This document shows, piece by piece, positions 3,711 through 44,450 of a DNA stretch of 64,000 nucleotides. Position 1 is the stretch's first letter; the number at the start of each line of letters is the position of its first letter. Origin of the DNA: Planctomycetota bacterium (GTDB taxonomy: Bacteria; Planctomycetota; UBA11346); assembly GCA_038213805.1 (NCBI GenBank), contig JBBQSO010000008.1, positions 36,597-100,596 of the forward strand, written 5' to 3'. A program made the translations under genes and the position numbers. Under the pieces are notes generated by a model. That model made no database searches and was not told where the DNA came from. It saw only the letters and a list, made by a program, of their open reading frames with translations.

Positions 3711-5096
3711 ATGACGCCGTCCGCCGCAACCGAAGCCGAGCCTCTCATCCCGGTGTTGCCTGCGCGCACCGTGTACATCGAGACCTTCGGCTGCCAGATG
3801 AACTTGGCCGATACCGAGGTCGTGCTCGCGCGCCTGGGTGAGGCGGGCTACCGCCGCGTCGACGAGGTCGAGCAGGCCAGCCTGGTGCTGTACAACACCT
3901 GCGCGGTGCGCGACCACGCCGAGGCCAAGGTGCGCGGCCGGCTCGGCGCGCTCAAGGGCCTCAAGCGCCGACGTCCCGAGCTCAAGATCGGCATCATGGG
4001 CTGCATGGCGCAGCGCGAGAAGGAGCAGCTGCTCGCCGCCTACCCGCACGTCGACCTGGTGGTCGGCACCGACCAGTTCGTGCGCATGCCGCAGCTGCTT
4101 GACCAGCTCGAGGACCACGGCCGCCTCGCCGCCACCGGCTTCGGCGACTTCGAGGATCGGATGTGGAGCGCGACGCGTTCCTCGGGGGTCAACGCCTGGG
4201 TGCCGATCATGCGCGGCTGCAACTACAACTGCACCTACTGCGTGGTGCCATTCACGCGCGGCCGCGAGAAGTCGCGCGCGCCAGCGCAGATCGAGGACGA
4301 GGTCCGGCGCCTGGTCGACGAGGGCTTCGCCCAGGTGACGCTGCTCGGCCAGACCGTCGATTCCTATGGCAAGACCCTGGGCGACGGCACCACCCTGGCC
4401 GCGCTGTTGCGCCGCGTGCACGCCATCGACGGGCTGAAGCGCCTGCGCTTCGTCACCAGTCATCCCAAGGACATCACTGACGAGCTGCTCGACACCATGG
4501 CCGCGCTGCCCAAGGTCGCGAAGCACCTGCACGTGCCGGCGCAGTGCGGCAGCGACCGCATCCTGCGCCTGATGGGCCGGCGCTATTCGCGCGACGACTA
4601 CCTGGACATGGTGCGGCGCGCCCGCGCGCGCATGCCGGAAATCGAGCTCCTCACCGACCTCATCGTCGGCTTCCCGCGCGAGACGGACGAGGATTTCGCG
4701 CAGACCGTGGCGCTGATGGAGGAGGTGCGCTTCGCCGGCGCCTACGTGTTCATGTACTCGCAGCGCCCGGACACGCCCGCCGCCAACCTCTCCGACGATG
4801 TGCCCATCGAGATCAAGAAGGCGCGCTGCAACCACCTTCTCGACCTGCAGCTCATCCACCAGGGCCAGGCCTACGCGCCACTCACCGGCCGCGTCCTGCA
4901 GGTGCTGGTCGAAGGCCCGAGCAAGAGCGACGAGGCCATGCTGCACGGCCGCTCGCTCGGCAACCTCAACATCGTCTTCCCGCGCGTGGACGCCGCTGGT
5001 GCCGGACGCGATGACCTGATCGGTCAGCTCGTGGACGTGCGTATCCAGCGCTCGACGAGTTTGACGTTGTTCGGGGATTTGACGGCTGATAGCTGA
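3711..5096 (+). CDS. miaB: tRNA-2-methylthio-N6-dimethylallyladenosine synthase
   Basis: TFGCQMN, NTCAVR, radical-SAM CNYNCTYC, C-terminal TRAM domain. Confidence 0.93.
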   Translation: MTPSAATEAEPLIPVLPARTVYIETFGCQMNLADTEVVLARLGEAGYRRVDEVEQASLVLYNTCAVRDHAEAKVRGRLGALKGLKRRRPELKIGIMGCMAQREKEQLLAAYPHVDLVVGTDQFVRMPQLLDQLEDHGRLAATGFGDFEDRMWSATRSSGVNAWVPIMRGCNYNCTYCVVPFTRGREKSRAPAQIEDEVRRLVDEGFAQVTLLGQTVDSYGKTLGDGTTLAALLRRVHAIDGLKRLRFVTSHPKDITDELLDTMAALPKVAKHLHVPAQCGSDRILRLMGRRYSRDDYLDMVRRARARMPEIELLTDLIVGFPRETDEDFAQTVALMEEVRFAGAYVFMYSQRPDTPAANLSDDVPIEIKKARCNHLLDLQLIHQGQAYAPLTGRVLQVLVEGPSKSDEAMLHGRSLGNLNIVFPRVDAAGAGRDDLIGQLVDVRIQRSTSLTLFGDLTADS

Positions 5097-38496: not shown

Positions 38497-38667
38497 GCTG
38501 ATGGCTGATGGCTGGCGGCTGGCCGCGGACAGCCTGCGGCAACCAGCTCGCAAAAAATGCAGTCGTGCGGGCTCGTGAAAATTAACGGAAACCCGGCGCT
38601 TCGCGCCAGGTTGTCAGCCATCAGCCATCAGCCATCAGCCATCAGCGATCAGCGATCAGCGATCAGC
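38497..38667. repeat. Palindromic element: (GCTGATG)-type arm, spacer, (C/GATCAGC)x8 arm
   Basis: Arms 38497-38524 and 38612-38667, between convergent genes. Confidence 0.88.
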
Positions 38668-39433
38668 GCGTCCGCTCGTACACCACCATCACCCGCTCCG
38701 GGTCCCCTTCCTCCAGCACCACCTTCTTTTCGACGACGAAGCGGTAGCCCAGCTTGTTGGCCGTGTTCATGGCCGTCTCGCGCTCGGGCCCCGCGAAGCC
38801 GGGCCCCTTGTAGATCACGACGTGACCACTCTTCTGCAGCAGATCGGCGGCCTCGGTGAGAACCTCCGAAGCCTGGCCCATGGCGCGGCAGGTGACGAGC
38901 TGGCAGTTGCGCTGCAGGTCGGAGGCACGCGCCGAGACTTCGCTGCCGCGCAGGTGGCGTGCGCTGACACGTGGCGCGCCGAAGCCGGCAAGCAGCGCGG
39001 CCGCGGCCTCCAGGAAATCGACCTTCTTGCGCCGCGTGTCGACCAGCACCCACGGCACGGTGGGATGCCACAGGGCGAGCGGCAATCCAGGATATCCGCC
39101 GCCAGCGCCGAGATCGACGCACGGCGCGCCTTCTGACAGGTGGCGCAGCCGGGTGTCCGGCTCCAGCACCAGGCTGTCGAGCAGGTGCTGCTTGAGGAAA
39201 TCGCGCGGCGCCGTGATGGTGGTCAGATTGAGCCAGCGGTTGACCCCGACGAGGTGCCCGTAAAGCGCCTGCAGCGCCGCCCGCCGCGGCCCTGCCCCGC
39301 TGATCGCCAGCGCATTGCAGCGCGCCGTGAACCACGCCCAGTCCGCATCTGGAAAGGCCACCGGCGGATGCAGGGCGGGATCGACGCTGCCCATCGCAGG
39401 ATCGTCGGCAGGCTGTTCAGCGCGCTTGGGCAT
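38663..39433 (-). CDS. rsmG: 16S rRNA m7G527 methyltransferase
   Basis: N..LNLT.I, HLLDSL, DLGAGGGYPGLPL, D...KKV.FL, VTCRA, YKG. Confidence 0.9.
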   Translation of the reverse strand: MPKRAEQPADDPAMGSVDPALHPPVAFPDADWAWFTARCNALAISGAGPRRAALQALYGHLVGVNRWLNLTTITAPRDFLKQHLLDSLVLEPDTRLRHLSEGAPCVDLGAGGGYPGLPLALWHPTVPWVLVDTRRKKVDFLEAAAALLAGFGAPRVSARHLRGSEVSARASDLQRNCQLVTCRAMGQASEVLTEAADLLQKSGHVVIYKGPGFAGPERETAMNTANKLGYRFVVEKKVVLEEGDPERVMVVYERTR

Positions 39434-39633
39434 GGTCTCGTTTCACCGGTCTGCCCGACCAAACCAGCCGGGCCCGCGCAATGTGGGAGCCCGACCCCCC
39501 ACGCAAACCGCATTTCCCGTTCCCAGCTTCCAGACGCGAGTCTCGGGTCTCGGGTCTCGCGCCTAGCGGCTGGCACCTTCCCCACTCCCCCGTCCCCCTT
39601 GCCCCGCCCCCAGCCCCGCCATCATCCCCTCTC

Positions 39634-40809
39634 GTGGACTACCTCGTCATCGCCCGCAAGTACCGCCCGCAGACCTTCAGCGAGGTCACCGGGCAGGACA
39701 TGGTGGCGCGCACGCTGAGCAACGCGATCACCTCCAACCGCGTCGCCCACGCCTACCTGTTCACCGGCCCGCGCGGCGTCGGCAAGACCAGCATGGCGCG
39801 CATCCTGGCCAAGGCGCTGTGCTGCGACAACGGCCCGACCACCACCCCCTGCGGGGTGTGCGCCAACTGCCGGATGATCACCGACAGCACCCACCCCGAC
39901 GTCGCCGAGATCGACGCGGCGCGCTTCAACGGCGTTGACGCCATCCGCGAGCTCTCCGACGGTGCGAGCTTCTCGCCGTCGCAGGCGCGTTTCCGCATCT
40001 ACCTGCTGGACGAGGTGCACATGCTCTCGACGGCGGCGTGGAATGCGCTGCTCAAGCTGCTCGAAGAGCCGCCCGCGCACGTGCGCTTCATCTTTGCCAC
40101 CACCGAGGTGGAGAAGGTCCTGCCGACCGTGCTGTCGCGCTGCCAGCGCTTCGACTTCCGCTCCATCGACCTCGACAACATCGTCAAGCGCCTGCGCGAG
40201 ATCTGCGCCGCCGAGAAGGCCGAGCTCAGCGACGCGGTGCTGTTCCGCATCGCGCGCGCGGCCGGCGGCGGCATGCGCGACGCGCAGACCCTGCTCGACC
40301 AGTTGATCGCCGCCAGCGACGGGCCGGTGCGCGAGGAGGACCTCAACCTGCTGCTCGGCGCGGCGCGCGGCGAGGATCTCGAACTGGTCGTCGAGCGCCT
40401 GCTGGCCGGCGACGCCAAGGGCGCGCTCGAGGCGCTCGACCGCATCAGCGCCGGCGGCGTGGCCGGAGCCACCTTCCTTGGCCAGCTCGTCGATCACGTG
40501 CGCACCATGCTGCTGGTCCAGGCCTGCGGGCCAGACTCGCCCGCGGTGCGCCGCCTGGGCAACGCCGGACCGGGGCTGCTCGCGCACGCCAAGACGGCCG
40601 CGCCTGAGAAGACCCTACGCATCTGCCAGGTGCTGATCGGCAGCCAGCAGGCGATGCGCCACGGCGTCGACCCGCGCCTGCAGCTCGAACTCGCCTGCGT
40701 GCGCATCGCCGGGCTTGGGCAGATGGTCGACGCCGACGCGTTGCTGCGCCGCCTTGAGCGTCTGGAATCCAGCGGCCTCGCCGGGGTGGGTGCCGCAAAC
40801 CCCAGGTAG
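39634..40809 (+). CDS. dnaX: DNA polymerase III gamma/tau, 0-frame part (gamma-like, 391 aa)
   Basis: ARKYRPQTF, GPRGVGKTS, CGVCANC, DEVHML, LSRCQRF, GGMRDA; GTG start. Confidence 0.95.
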   Translation: MDYLVIARKYRPQTFSEVTGQDMVARTLSNAITSNRVAHAYLFTGPRGVGKTSMARILAKALCCDNGPTTTPCGVCANCRMITDSTHPDVAEIDAARFNGVDAIRELSDGASFSPSQARFRIYLLDEVHMLSTAAWNALLKLLEEPPAHVRFIFATTEVEKVLPTVLSRCQRFDFRSIDLDNIVKRLREICAAEKAELSDAVLFRIARAAGGGMRDAQTLLDQLIAASDGPVREEDLNLLLGAARGEDLELVVERLLAGDAKGALEALDRISAGGVAGATFLGQLVDHVRTMLLVQACGPDSPAVRRLGNAGPGLLAHAKTAAPEKTLRICQVLIGSQQAMRHGVDPRLQLELACVRIAGLGQMVDADALLRRLERLESSGLAGVGAANPR

Positions 40810-40842
40810 GGCCGGAGCGGGCGGCCAGCCCGCTGCCGGCCC
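40783..40842 (+). other. Putative programmed -1 ribosomal frameshift cassette in dnaX
   Basis: GGGGTG 40783-40788; heptamer A_AAC_CCC 40797-40803; 5-nt spacer; hairpin 40809-40842. Confidence 0.7.
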
Positions 40843-41453
40843 GGGGAGGCGAACGTGGCGTGCTCTCGGCCAATCCGCGGCCGCCGAACGACGGGCTCTT
40901 GCCGGCCGCGCCGCTGTCGCGTCCCGCGCCCGCACCGACGGCCGCGGGGGCCCCCGTCGACGAACCGCGCAGCCCCGCCCGCGCCGCCCCACCCCCAGAC
41001 GCTTCACCCCAGGCCCTGCTGCCCCTGTTGCAGGCGCGCTGGGGCGAACTGCCGCGCATCGCCATGCGCGACCAGCAGGTCGAGCTCGCCACCGCCCTCG
41101 CCACCAGCAATCCGGTGGCGCTGGCGGTCGACCTGCTCACCGTCGAATTCGCGGGCGCCTTCAGCGAGCGCTTCAACTCCGCTCCCGAGCTGCAGCGCAT
41201 CCTCGAGGCCCTCGTCGAGCTGCTTGCGGGGCGGCGTCTGCGCGTGGTGGCGCGGCGTCCGGGCGGCAGCGGCGCGGACGAGCGCGGCCGACGTTACCAG
41301 GCGGCCCAGGCCAACCCGCTGGTGAAGGCCCTGCTCGGCCGCTTCGGCGCCGACATCGTCGCGCGCGAGATGATCGCGCGCGACGACTGGCTGCAGCGTC
41401 TCAATGCGCCGCCCATCCGTCCGGACGATTCCGCGACCACTGCCCCGGAGTAA
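40803..41453 (+). CDS. dnaX: DnaX tau C-terminal part in the -1 frame (Pro/Ala linker + tau C-terminal domain)
   Basis: Frame open 40758-41453; W..L..LATAL...L.VEF and A.ANPLVK.LL.RFGA.IV patterns typical of tau C-termini. Confidence 0.75.
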   Translation, partial: QVGPERAASPLPARGGERGVLSANPRPPNDGLLPAAPLSRPAPAPTAAGAPVDEPRSPARAAPPPDASPQALLPLLQARWGELPRIAMRDQQVELATALATSNPVALAVDLLTVEFAGAFSERFNSAPELQRILEALVELLAGRRLRVVARRPGGSGADERGRRYQAAQANPLVKALLGRFGADIVAREMIARDDWLQRLNAPPIRPDDSATTAPE

Positions 41454-41627
41454 GCGCATAAGCCCGCAGTGGGGGTCGCGATGCCCGTGCTGGTCATGCC
41501 CATGCTGGTCCTGCCCCGTTCAGGCCTGGTGCCCTATCCATTGATAGGGTATGTACTTGCCCAACTGTCGCAGAACTCCCATGGCTCCGTTAACCCGCTG
41601 ATCTAGGCTGCGACGACCCGAGCGCGC

Positions 41628-44450
41628 ATGAACATCGACCCGATCAGCGTCGCCAACGTGCACGCCCCGCCTGCGGCACGGGACGAGGCCGGGGACATGC
41701 CGGCCAGCAGCGGCCGCCAGCCCGTCCAGATCGGCCCTTACCGCATCGAGCGGGTCATCGGCCGCGGCGGCATGGGCACCGTCTACAAGGCCCTGGTGGT
41801 GGTGTCCTGCGAGGTGCCGATCGGCTCGCACGTGGCGCTCAAGCTGCTGCGCGAGACCGAACCCCAGGAACGCCGCCGCTTCGCGCGCGAAGCTGGGTAC
41901 CTGCAGGCACTGCGCCACCCCAACATCGTGCGCGTGCTCGACGCCGGTGAGTACGAGGGCCAGCCCTATCTGGTCATGCAGCTGATCGAAGGGCACCACG
42001 CCGACGACCTCGTCATCGAGGGCCGGGCAGTCGACCAGCAGCGCGTCGCCGACCTCGCCATCCAGGCGCTCGACGCGCTGCAGGTCGCGCACCACGCCGG
42101 CATCCTGCACCGCGACATCAAGCCCGGCAACATCATGATCACGCCGGCCGGACAGGTGAAGCTGGTCGACTTCGGTCTCGCCCAGTACATCGACGCCGAG
42201 TCGCACCTCACCGCCACCGGTGCGGTCGTCGGCACGCCCGCCTACATGAGCCCGGAGCAGGCGAGCGGCCGGCGCGACGAGATCAGCCGGCGCTGCGACA
42301 TCTACAGCATGGGCGCCTGCCTCTACGAACTGCTCACCGGCGAGCAGCCGTTCACCGCCGACAACTCGGTGGCGCTGCTGCGGCGCATCATCGAGGAACC
42401 GCTGGTGCCGCCCAGCCGGCTGCGCCGCGACCTGCACCGGGACCTTGAGACCATCGTGCTCAAGGCCATGTCCAAGGACCCGCGCGACCGCTACGCCAGC
42501 GCTGCCGAGATGGCCGCCGACCTGCGCCGCTTCCAGGTCGGCGTGCGCGTGCGCACCAAACGGCCCGGCCCGCTGCGCCCGCTGCTGCGCACCTTGTGGA
42601 ACCAGCGCGCAACCCTGGCGGCGATGGGCCTGGTGCTGTTTGTCGCCGCCGCCGCCGCGGTGCTGGCCGTCAACCGCGGACTGCGCCGCGCCGAGATCCA
42701 CGACCCGGGCACCACGCCGAGCATCCTCACCGCCGGCCAGCCGGTCGAGGTCGAACCACCGCCGCCCGCCGACCCGTGGTTGGTCGAGTGGGCGCAGGTG
42801 CCGGCCCTCGACGCCAAGGGCAGCCGCGTGCAGCTCAAGCCGCTGCCGACCTTCGGCAAGGACGTGATGAGCACGGTGGGCATGCCCGCGGTGTCGGGCC
42901 CGGTGCGCCTGAGCGCGACCATCAACATCCTCGCCGCCGAGTGCCAGGTGAACCTGCTGATCTGCGATAGCGATATCGGCAACGGCTACCGTCTGCGCCT
43001 GGTCGGCGCCAAGGCCAACGACCGCCTTGAGCTGATGCGCGAGAACAAGGTGGTGGCGTTCCGCGACCTCGGCCAGCTGGTGCGTGGCAACCGCCCGCAG
43101 CGCCTGCGCATCGAGCGCGTCGACGACACCGTGACGGTGGCCCTCGGCACGCGCGAGCCGATCGTCTTCCCCGACCTCATCCCGATCGAAAGCATGGAGG
43201 CCGACGGCGTCTACATCGCCTACGACCCCAGCCAGGTAAAGGTCAGCGACGTGCTGCTGCAACGCCAACGTGGCGGCCTCACCATCAGCGCGCTGACCCA
43301 GGCCGACAGTTTCCGCCAGACGCGGCGCTACTACCGCGCCAAGGAGCTCTACGAGAATTTCCTGCGCGACCACCCCGACTCCAAGCAGGTGCGCGACGCC
43401 GACCTGCGCATCGCGCTGTGCCTCGAGGGCCTGAAGGACGACGAGCAGGCGCTGGCCAAGTTCGTCGCCGTGGCCAGCGCCAATCGCGACGATCCGCGCT
43501 ACGTGCTGACCGCGACCTTCCACGCCTGGGGCTGCGCGCTGCGCCTCAAGCTGTTCAAGGACGCCGAGGAGTACTTTGAGGCCATCCGCCGCAAGTACGA
43601 CATCCCGACACTGCTCGCAACGGTCAACGAGAAGGTGGTGCGCGAGCTGGTGAAGGACTACCTGGAGCGCGCCGCCACGCTCAGCGACAGCGAGCCCGAC
43701 CGCGCCATCCGCCTCTACGCGACCGGCGCGGATTTCGCCACCTACCTGCTGCAGCAGCCGGACATCGCAAACGACCCGCGCATCGTCGAGACCATCGCCA
43801 AGGCGCACGTCGGCGCCGGCGACCTGCTGCGTACGAACGGCCGCGCCGGCGAGGCCCTCGACCACTACCAGATCGCCGCCGCGCAGAAGGATCTGCCCAC
43901 GCCGCTGCGCCTGACCACGCTGATGCGCCTCGCGGAAGTCCACCGGCTGCTCGACAACCTCGATGCCGCCGAGGTCGCCTATCAAATGGTGGTAGCGACC
44001 ACGCCAGACGTCGACGACGCCCAGCTATGGGCGAGACTGTGGCTCGGCGACCTTGTCGCTTTGCGCGGCAACCGCCCGCGCGCCTTCGAAACCTGGGCCA
44101 AGGCCGGCACCAGCGACCACCTGCCGGCGCGCATCATGCGCCAGCTGGTGGTCGGCTATGAGCCGCTGCCACTGGAGGCTCCGCACGACCACGATGTCGA
44201 CATCCTCTACTTCAACGCGCGCCTGGCCTGGCTGCGCGGCCGTGAGGCCGACTACGCGGAACGCCTACAGGGCGTGATGGACCTGGGTACACCCAACGTC
44301 TGGCCCCGGCCACTGGCCAAGCAGCTGCTCGCCGGGCTGACCGTGCCGGTGCCGGCGCCGGACCCGGTACCGCCGAGCGACGACCCGGCCGGTGCGTCGA
44401 CGGCGCCGATCGGGGCGCCGTCGCCCCTGGGTTCCTCCCAGGTACCCTGA
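41628..44450 (+). CDS. Hanks-type Ser/Thr protein kinase with TM segment and TPR-like C-terminus
   Basis: IGRGGMGTVY, VALK, HRDIKPGN, DFGLA, GTPAYMSPEQ. Confidence 0.92.
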   Translation: MNIDPISVANVHAPPAARDEAGDMPASSGRQPVQIGPYRIERVIGRGGMGTVYKALVVVSCEVPIGSHVALKLLRETEPQERRRFAREAGYLQALRHPNIVRVLDAGEYEGQPYLVMQLIEGHHADDLVIEGRAVDQQRVADLAIQALDALQVAHHAGILHRDIKPGNIMITPAGQVKLVDFGLAQYIDAESHLTATGAVVGTPAYMSPEQASGRRDEISRRCDIYSMGACLYELLTGEQPFTADNSVALLRRIIEEPLVPPSRLRRDLHRDLETIVLKAMSKDPRDRYASAAEMAADLRRFQVGVRVRTKRPGPLRPLLRTLWNQRATLAAMGLVLFVAAAAAVLAVNRGLRRAEIHDPGTTPSILTAGQPVEVEPPPPADPWLVEWAQVPALDAKGSRVQLKPLPTFGKDVMSTVGMPAVSGPVRLSATINILAAECQVNLLICDSDIGNGYRLRLVGAKANDRLELMRENKVVAFRDLGQLVRGNRPQRLRIERVDDTVTVALGTREPIVFPDLIPIESMEADGVYIAYDPSQVKVSDVLLQRQRGGLTISALTQADSFRQTRRYYRAKELYENFLRDHPDSKQVRDADLRIALCLEGLKDDEQALAKFVAVASANRDDPRYVLTATFHAWGCALRLKLFKDAEEYFEAIRRKYDIPTLLATVNEKVVRELVKDYLERAATLSDSEPDRAIRLYATGADFATYLLQQPDIANDPRIVETIAKAHVGAGDLLRTNGRAGEALDHYQIAAAQKDLPTPLRLTTLMRLAEVHRLLDNLDAAEVAYQMVVATTPDVDDAQLWARLWLGDLVALRGNRPRAFETWAKAGTSDHLPARIMRQLVVGYEPLPLEAPHDHDVDILYFNARLAWLRGREADYAERLQGVMDLGTPNVWPRPLAKQLLAGLTVPVPAPDPVPPSDDPAGASTAPIGAPSPLGSSQVP

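Follow-up and report, generated by a model that had tools for sequence, protein, structure and literature searches.

A dnaX gene split by a putative −1 frameshift cassette with a proline slip tetramer in a Planctomycetota lineage

Known dnaX recoding systems and the locus in Planctomycetota

The dnaX gene of Escherichia coli and other enterobacteria gives rise to two products with a common N-terminus. Its 0 frame encodes the long subunit tau, whereas a −1 shift at the boundary of domain III, which takes place on the Lys heptamer A_AAA_AAG between a 5′ Shine–Dalgarno (SD)-like element and a 3′ stem–loop, leads to the shorter gamma. The C-terminal region of E. coli tau is needed to hold the polymerase. 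Single-tRNA −1 slippage on tetranucleotides of the A_AAG type is found in bacterial insertion sequence (IS) elements, and sites of the C_CCU_UUU type are found in viruses. Here, we describe a dnaX gene with a reversed relation of frames and products. It is located in a 64,000-nucleotide (nt) stretch of an uncultured Planctomycetota bacterium (GTDB lineage UBA11346; contig JBBQSO010000008.1, positions 36,597 to 100,596), which is referred to as the window and to which all coordinates apply. With a probability of about 85%, and judged from sequence comparison, the locus is a real dnaX gene expressed via programmed −1 ribosomal frameshifting, with a gamma-like protein as the default product and a tau of 606 amino acids (aa) as the product of slippage. 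The same division of roles had been proposed in an earlier note on this DNA. The break, its direction, the slip motif, and the covarying hairpin were found in all 36 junctions compared below; the evidence for the frameshift is comparative throughout.

Like its counterpart in E. coli, the gene would undergo a −1 shift at the domain III boundary, carries a 3′ stem–loop a few nucleotides past the slip site, and would yield two products sharing their N-terminus. In contrast to E. coli, the shifted product is not the shorter one, since the 0 frame ends after 391 aa and the −1 frame adds 216 residues past the slip-site proline. Instead of a Lys heptamer, the tetramer C_CCY (Y, pyrimidine) would be read by tRNA-Pro, mostly next to a P-site codon that is unable to re-pair; the SD-like element is unconserved, and the cassette matches no Rfam family. 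With the A_AAG sites of IS elements and the viral C_CCU_UUU sites, the cassette shares the putative movement of one tRNA onto an overlapping cognate codon, the help of a 3′ structure, and a CCCU core, whereas the genes, tRNAs, and organisms are different. Two further likenesses to E. coli concern geometry and base pairing. The spacing, by which the stem base comes to lie at the mRNA entrance, is established for E. coli (Atkins et al., 2016), and the slip toward a better-pairing codon described there (Atkins et al., 2016) would also apply to C_CCU.

The reversed layout itself has precedents. Antonov et al. (2013; NAR 41:6514, PMC3711429) report 17 reversed two-ORF (open reading frame) dnaX genes from 12 genera, none of them annotated as such. 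For 12 of the 17, which carry poly-A runs of 7–10 A (Chlorobi and others), the authors proposed transcriptional realignment. The review of Atkins et al. (2016) repeats the reversed dnaX and mentions Chlorobium phaeobacteroides as a case with E. coli-like signals (unpublished). According to both papers, two DnaX products are also obtained from one gene in Thermus thermophilus, where RNA polymerase slips on an A/T run of 9, and in Caulobacter, where gamma results from ClpXP-type proteolysis; in both organisms tau is encoded by a single ORF, and unlike the process proposed here, neither route involves ribosomal slippage. The Planctomycetota gene shares with the type of Antonov et al. (2013) the two adjacent ORFs in −1 relation, the 0-frame stop directly after the shift site, and a tau that needs recoding (36/36 junctions here). 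The inverted logic emphasized in the earlier note thus holds as a layout but is not new (Antonov et al., 2013; Atkins et al., 2016). The signals differ: poly-A prevails in the published genes, whereas no A run, and hence none of 7–10 A, occurs at any of the 36 junctions, and C_CCY, a GC hairpin, and Planctomycetota are not mentioned in the accessible sections of either paper. Our literature search found no report of a dnaX frameshift in Planctomycetota or on C_CCY; the five genes without poly-A in Antonov et al. (2013) might include one. The reversed layout is therefore already known, but the combination of C_CCY and hairpin and its distribution in Planctomycetota were not found in print.

Reading frames of the split gene and their conservation

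The 0-frame ORF of dnaX (39634..40809, plus strand) starts with GTG and stops at TAG 40807–40809. The encoded protein of 391 aa ends with ...AANPR and contains the clamp-loader domains I–III (Pfam DNA_pol3_delta2, 5.9e-46; DNAX_ATPase_lid, 6.6e-12; DNA_pol3_gamma3, 2.6e-9). It scores 408 bits against NCBIfam TIGR02397 (dnaX_nterm), which has a cut-off of 250. These matches and coordinates agree with the earlier note, in which the 0 frame was read as ending at this TAG after the clamp-loader domains. Homologues of 380–431 aa align across 93–100% of the protein. The longest ORF call uses an alternative upstream start, ATG 39481, and comprises 442 aa; GTG 39634 appears to be the better start, because alignments with relatives of ~390 aa begin at the first residue of the GTG form. 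Taken together, the sequence data support a gamma-like short protein as the probable default product of the 0 frame.

The −1 frame is open from position 40758 up to its stop at 41451–41453. The part that would be translated after the shift (40800..41453, plus strand) has 217 codons followed by TAA and is made up of a Pro/Ala-rich linker, a middle module (approximately 41013–41252), and a conserved terminal motif (approximately 41277–41402). A slip at the Pro codon results in a computed product of 389 + 217 = 606 aa, in which ...AANP is joined to QVGPER. Both the extent of the open −1 frame, with its Pro/Ala linker and tau-like C-terminus, and the length of the slippage product (~606 aa) agree with the earlier note. 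The −1 ORF matches the NCBIfam model PRK14950 (DnaX) at positions 402–580 of 585 with an E-value of 1.2e-7, and 17 of the 33 complete −1 ORFs of relatives match the same model. An alignment of these 33 ORFs, termed A4, was used as a profile against 1.84 billion representative proteins and retrieved 929 proteins at E ≤ 1e-3. The best 75 (E ≤ 1e-10) are stand-alone ORFs of 48–199 aa; beginning with E 1.5e-10, the profile matches the C-terminal ends of continuous proteins of 522–597 aa. All seven continuous matches that were checked are DnaX proteins, and in six of them Pfam DnaX_C lies at or overlaps the matched stretch. Because the profile matches the C-termini of continuous DnaX proteins, mostly in DnaX_C, the −1 ORF is, by homology, the C-terminal region of DnaX and thus the tau-specific part. 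A homologue search for longer, fused relatives of the C-terminal ORF found none at E ≤ 1e-3, which is a weak test because low-complexity words crowded the candidates, and a hidden Markov model of the C-terminal part gave nothing significant among ten outgroup loci (best E 0.08, for L043, which has a continuous DnaX).

All 33 complete −1 ORFs can be aligned with each other, and they end with a motif of the form RY..A..HPLV..L.KRF.ADIV.RE....W. In some lineages (L007, L016, L022, L023, L025–L031, and L035), the tau extension encoded in the −1 ORF is only 61–150 aa long; the middle module is missing there, and the linker and the terminal motif of ~45 aa are kept. The C-terminus of tau therefore seems to be modular within the clade. 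A profile of the middle module gave only weak matches in the PDB, to DnaA domain I (4tps_B, E 0.029), so that the two may share a small fold.

A scan with one genome per GTDB species yielded 47 loci, 37 of which belong to the same Planctomycetota group of metagenome-assembled genomes (MAGs) as the window and show 62–97% identity in the N-terminal part. Two of them (L034 and L036) stop short of the junction, which leaves 35 related junctions and, together with the window, the 36 junctions analyzed; they stem from different MAG projects. The same break is present in 36/36, and a continuous ORF, which the earlier note had named as an outcome that would speak against its reading, was found in none of the related loci that extend to the junction. 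Where the whole ORF is covered, the 0 frame stops at 380–412 codons, and at every junction the −1 frame remains open past this stop. Among the best 120 protein-cluster matches to the N-terminal part (60–97% identity), 119 are 380–431 aa long and one is a fragment of 294 aa. Their C-terminal ends are PR (83), P (26), P plus one residue (5), or other (6, including the fragment).

Both halves of the gene were found by tblastn in 28 loci, and in 28/28 the C-terminal half lies in the −1 frame; the search for the frame break in relatives suggested in the earlier note thus gave the same picture at every locus. Between the slip-site Pro and a conserved Phe lie 39 to 212 codons, with 29 different distances among the loci and an unchanged frame throughout, which means that all linker indels have been frame-preserving. 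These results support the assumption that the tau-like C-terminus can be joined to the clamp-loader domains only through a −1 shift just before the stop, and the comparison across assemblies confirms that the gene is truly split and not the product of an assembly error. The closest continuous dnaX at hand, L038, also belongs to the Planctomycetota and is at most ~52% identical. A quick maximum-likelihood analysis of 51 N-terminal sequences, from which L033 and L047 were left out as N-terminally truncated, placed the 34 split forms on one side of a branch with a Shimodaira–Hasegawa-like approximate likelihood ratio (SH-aLRT) support of 100; the resulting tree is unrooted, and according to a warning of the program, this point is a meeting place of long branches. 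The topology fits a single origin of the split dnaX in one monophyletic MAG group.

Candidate slip site, hairpin, and rival explanations

The candidate slip tetramer C_CCC (40800..40803, plus strand; clade consensus C_CCY) consists of the Pro codon CCC at 40801–40803 and the overlapping CCC at 40800–40802. It is contained in AAACCCC (A_AAC_CCC, 40797–40803), which the earlier note had identified as an X_XXY_YYZ heptamer. This heptamer is formally present in the window, but only the tetramer C_CCY is kept in the clade, where the codon preceding the slip Pro is CGC in 14 junctions, AAC in 8, CAC in 8, GGC in 5, and AGC in 1. C_CCN was found at 36/36 junctions, with CCT as the Pro codon in 25, CCC in 10, and CCG in one. 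Among the other 558 Pro codons of these ORFs, CCT has a share of only 5.4%, and the base preceding the slip Pro codon is C in 36/36 compared to 32% before other Pro codons. The stretches in which both frames are open are as short as 22 nt (L033), 28 nt (L021), and 31 nt (L013 and L032), and within these C_CCY is the sole shared slip candidate.

The 0-frame stop TAG (40807..40809, plus strand) is located one codon past the slip codon in the window. In the 36 junctions, the stop follows the slip Pro directly (6 loci) or after one intervening codon (30 loci), which in all 30 encodes Arg (CGC 15, CGG 8, AGG 6, CGT 1); the stop itself is TAG in 30 cases, TGA in 5, and TAA in one. The hairpin begins with the G of the TAG, which is also part of a conserved [V/L]-G-P in the −1 frame. 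As read from the letters, the TAG trinucleotide at the junction is thus used for three purposes at once.

Between the slip codon and the hairpin lies the 5-nt spacer AGGTA (40804–40808, plus strand). The hairpin (40809..40842, plus strand) consists of 14 bp, a single bulged G, and a 5-nt loop, GGCCA, and has a predicted folding energy of −32.1 kcal/mol. Both elements are placed as in the earlier note, and the arrangement recurs in 35/35 related loci. Within the dnaX gene of the window, this is the most stable segment of 42 nt (0/579 others as good, z −4.1), and together with the recurrence in relatives this exceeds what would be expected by chance. Hairpins of 10–17 bp follow the slip site at 36/36 junctions, with a spacer of 5 nt in 20/36 and a range of 2–7 nt, compared to about 5–9 nt for stem–loops of the E. 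coli type. Ranked by stability within its own gene, the hairpin is first in 20/36 loci, among the top 1% in 27/36, and among the top 5% in 35/36 (median z −3.5). The basal stem GGGCCG/CGGCCC is nearly invariant, and the inner stems vary by lineage with pairing kept. The conserved cassette is best described as C_CCY, a neighboring stop, and a hairpin.

Covariation was counted on 11 hairpins (7 distinct) that share the same length and could be aligned without gaps; the 31-nt group (6 sequences) was left uncounted. Here, 93.4% of the cells are paired versus 23–52% with slid partners, 7 of 13 pairs are altered on both sides, and the observed score was reached by 0/500 shuffles; a covarying hairpin, the evidence from relatives for which the earlier note had asked, is therefore present. 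A whole-junction MAFFT alignment with RNAalifold recovered no more than 5 basal pairs, since the loop and stem lengths differ, and was replaced by the extraction of hairpins from the individual sequences. The peptide encoded across the hairpin is highly variable, so protein conservation does not account for the hairpin, and because no T-run is present, it is not terminator-like. A role of the hairpin as terminator or promoter was considered as well and rejected, since no terminator-like or promoter-like site was detected within 40600–41700. The search with cmscan of 39300–41700 against all 4227 Rfam families (E ≤ 1) gave no match on the cassette. Two sub-threshold matches on the minus strand are unrelated to frameshifting; one of them, chrB-b (40708–40804), overlaps the slip region.

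From these features, we infer a ribosomal mechanism that involves tRNA-Pro. Ribosomes staying in frame would read ...Asn-Pro-Arg, halt at TAG 40807, and release the gamma-like subunit of 391 aa. The GC hairpin 5 nt downstream would stall a fraction of the ribosomes during translocation of the Pro codon, and with this spacing the base of the stem would be at the mRNA entrance when the Pro codon occupies the A site. The tRNA-Pro could then slip from CCC/CCU back onto the overlapping CCC (C_CCY). Slipped ribosomes would read P-[S/Q/P]-[L/V]-G-P, followed by the Pro/Ala linker and the DnaX C-terminal region, and complete the 606-aa tau. As most loci have a P-site codon that is unable to re-pair, single-tRNA rather than tandem slippage is assumed. 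Judging by the preference for C_CCU, the slip may exchange a wobble pair of the 0 frame for a Watson–Crick pair of the −1 frame, similar to tRNA-Lys on A_AAG; this idea is based on the strong preference for CCT in a genome with a G+C content of ~70%. The efficiency of frameshifting would then set the ratio of tau to gamma. A tRNA scan of the window detected no tRNA genes.

Several observations weigh against frameshifting on this cassette or limit the force of the comparison. The loci are kin, so that their counts do not stand for independent events. Re-pairing in the −1 frame is impossible for the P-site codons CGC, CAC, GGC, and AGC, which precludes tandem slippage in most loci, and our literature search turned up no bacterial −1 site of the C_CCY type with experimental proof. 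In-frame C_CCY occurs 61 times among the 13,599 other codons of these ORFs, and the tetramer alone is therefore insufficient; in L020, the slip site is C_CCG. The hairpin is less outstanding in L009–L012, where 9 to 54 of the ~570–597 other segments are equally good, and that of L010 is the sole one outside the top 5%. Pfam DnaX_C gives no direct match to the −1 ORF of the window at E ≤ 0.1. Finally, the 5′ element is not conserved. The SD-like GGGGTG (40783..40788, plus strand), which the earlier note had included in the cassette, is indeed present 8 nt before the heptamer in the window, where its pairing with a generic anti-SD probe (not the organism's own 16S rRNA) reaches −9.5 kcal/mol and is among the top 4% of ORF positions. 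With the same probe, the median rank in the clade is 0.22 and a rank ≤ 0.1 was found in only 9/36 loci; the motif is good in the window, L003, L016, and L032, and L011, L017, L022, and L023 have none. GGGGTG may be a 5′ stimulator in the window, but judged from this median rank and the four loci without a motif, an SD-like stimulator does not appear to be a conserved part of the cassette.

The best surviving alternative, although an improbable one, is a pair of separate genes. In this case, the short DnaX would be the sole clamp-loader ATPase, and the downstream ORF would be translated alone, from its own start or by termination–reinitiation, and act in trans or otherwise. Gene callers indeed list the downstream part as stand-alone proteins (the top 75 A4 matches), an in-frame GTG is located 20 codons past the slip site in the window and in L001, and a weak SD-like GGGGAGG follows the hairpin. 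However, this start, GTG 40860, which the earlier note had considered as a possible own start of the downstream ORF, is common only to the window and the 97% identical L001. No start position is conserved across the −1 ORFs of the clade, and none overlaps or adjoins the stop. No ATG, GTG, or TTG is present anywhere in the −1 ORF of L029, and in L025 and L028 start codons are found only within the conserved terminal motif. Separate genes would also not be expected to keep the −1 relation in 28/28 loci (tblastn) and in 33/33 complete ORFs despite 29 linker lengths, and the conserved C_CCY and the hairpin at its fixed distance would be left without a role. By analogy with tau of E. coli, coupling of the polymerase to the clamp loader would not be possible with an untethered C-terminal region.

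Frame repair at the RNA level, by slippage of RNA polymerase at the C run or by editing of the transcript, followed by ordinary translation into tau, is still less probable than separate genes. Precedents are the transcriptional realignment that is documented in Thermus dnaX and proposed for poly-A two-ORF dnaX (Antonov et al., 2013; Atkins et al., 2016) and an IS element of Roseiflexus, in which slippage at T5C5 depends on the context (Atkins et al., 2016). The C run at the junctions is only 3–5 nt long, however, and reads CCCT in 25/36, whereas the dnaX runs reported by Antonov et al. (2013) are 7–10 nt. The preferred T in place of C as the fourth base makes the homopolymer shorter, which would be the opposite of what is expected for polymerase slippage, and the conserved structure follows downstream at a 5-nt distance, as is typical for ribosomal stimulators. 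An assembly or sequencing indel, or a recent pseudogenizing mutation, in a normally continuous dnaX is hardly conceivable: the break does adjoin the short homopolymer CCCC, and one added base would fuse the frames, but the same break recurs at 36/36 junctions of many independent assemblies with differing local sequences (many with only CCC followed by T), almost all of the best protein matches (119 of 120) have the short length of ~390 aa, the closest continuous form is as distant as L038, and both ORFs are intact and conserved.

Wider meaning and genomic context

If tau works as in E. coli, a programmed −1 shift would mean that an essential replication protein of an uncultured lineage is made only via recoding. 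Automatic annotation accordingly gives a truncated gamma/tau protein of ~390 aa and an orphan small ORF, and annotation pipelines could gain a dnaX rule for this clade. The cassette would extend the bacterial −1 shift sites to a proline tetramer and would provide a natural, strongly conserved system for −1 slippage of tRNA-Pro, which the papers retrieved by our literature search link almost solely to +1 shifts. It also appears to be an independent case of a reversed dnaX with quite different signals, which would support selection for two DnaX products. A more far-reaching proposal, which we put forward only tentatively and consider rather doubtful, is that C_CCU/C_CCC and the GC hairpin form a new class of bacterial −1 sites and the sole route to an essential replisome subunit, with a tau:gamma ratio that can be tuned by translation. 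In this case, the number of polymerases tethered per clamp loader could be tunable and responsive to the supply or modification of tRNA-Pro, EF-P, or the growth state, instead of being fixed at 1:1.

Short 0-frame DnaX ORFs were also observed in outgroup loci of the Verrucomicrobiota. In L041, a MAG of the Opitutales, dnaX ends with ...CCC GAA AAA AAA AAG TAG (4044–4110), with A10 directly before the stop; the 0 frame stops at 366 codons and the −1 frame is open for 94 codons further. In these features, the locus resembles the reversed dnaX genes with poly-A runs described by Antonov et al. (2013). Four further loci (L042, L044, L045, and L046) have 0-frame DnaX ORFs of 353–369 codons, and ORFs in another frame follow the DnaX stop in L042 (+1, 133 aa), L044 (+1, 125 aa), and L045 (−1, 166 aa), which may be either the next genes or parts of a split dnaX.

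In the window, dnaX is preceded by the divergently oriented rsmG (38663–39433, minus strand; Pfam GidB, 1.4e-26). The pair ybaB–recR is commonly located next after dnaX in other bacteria. It is absent from this position in the window, where a gene encoding a Ser/Thr protein kinase with TPR repeats (41628–44450, plus strand; 940 aa) is found instead. Tandem repeats lie on both sides of dnaX. Just upstream of the start, GTCTCGG is repeated 2.9 times at 39540–39559, followed by C-rich repeats of 7 and 12 nt at 39586–39629. In the gap before the kinase gene, 28 nt past the tau stop, the 15-nt repeat ATGCCCATGCTGGTC is present in 2.4 copies at 41481–41516.

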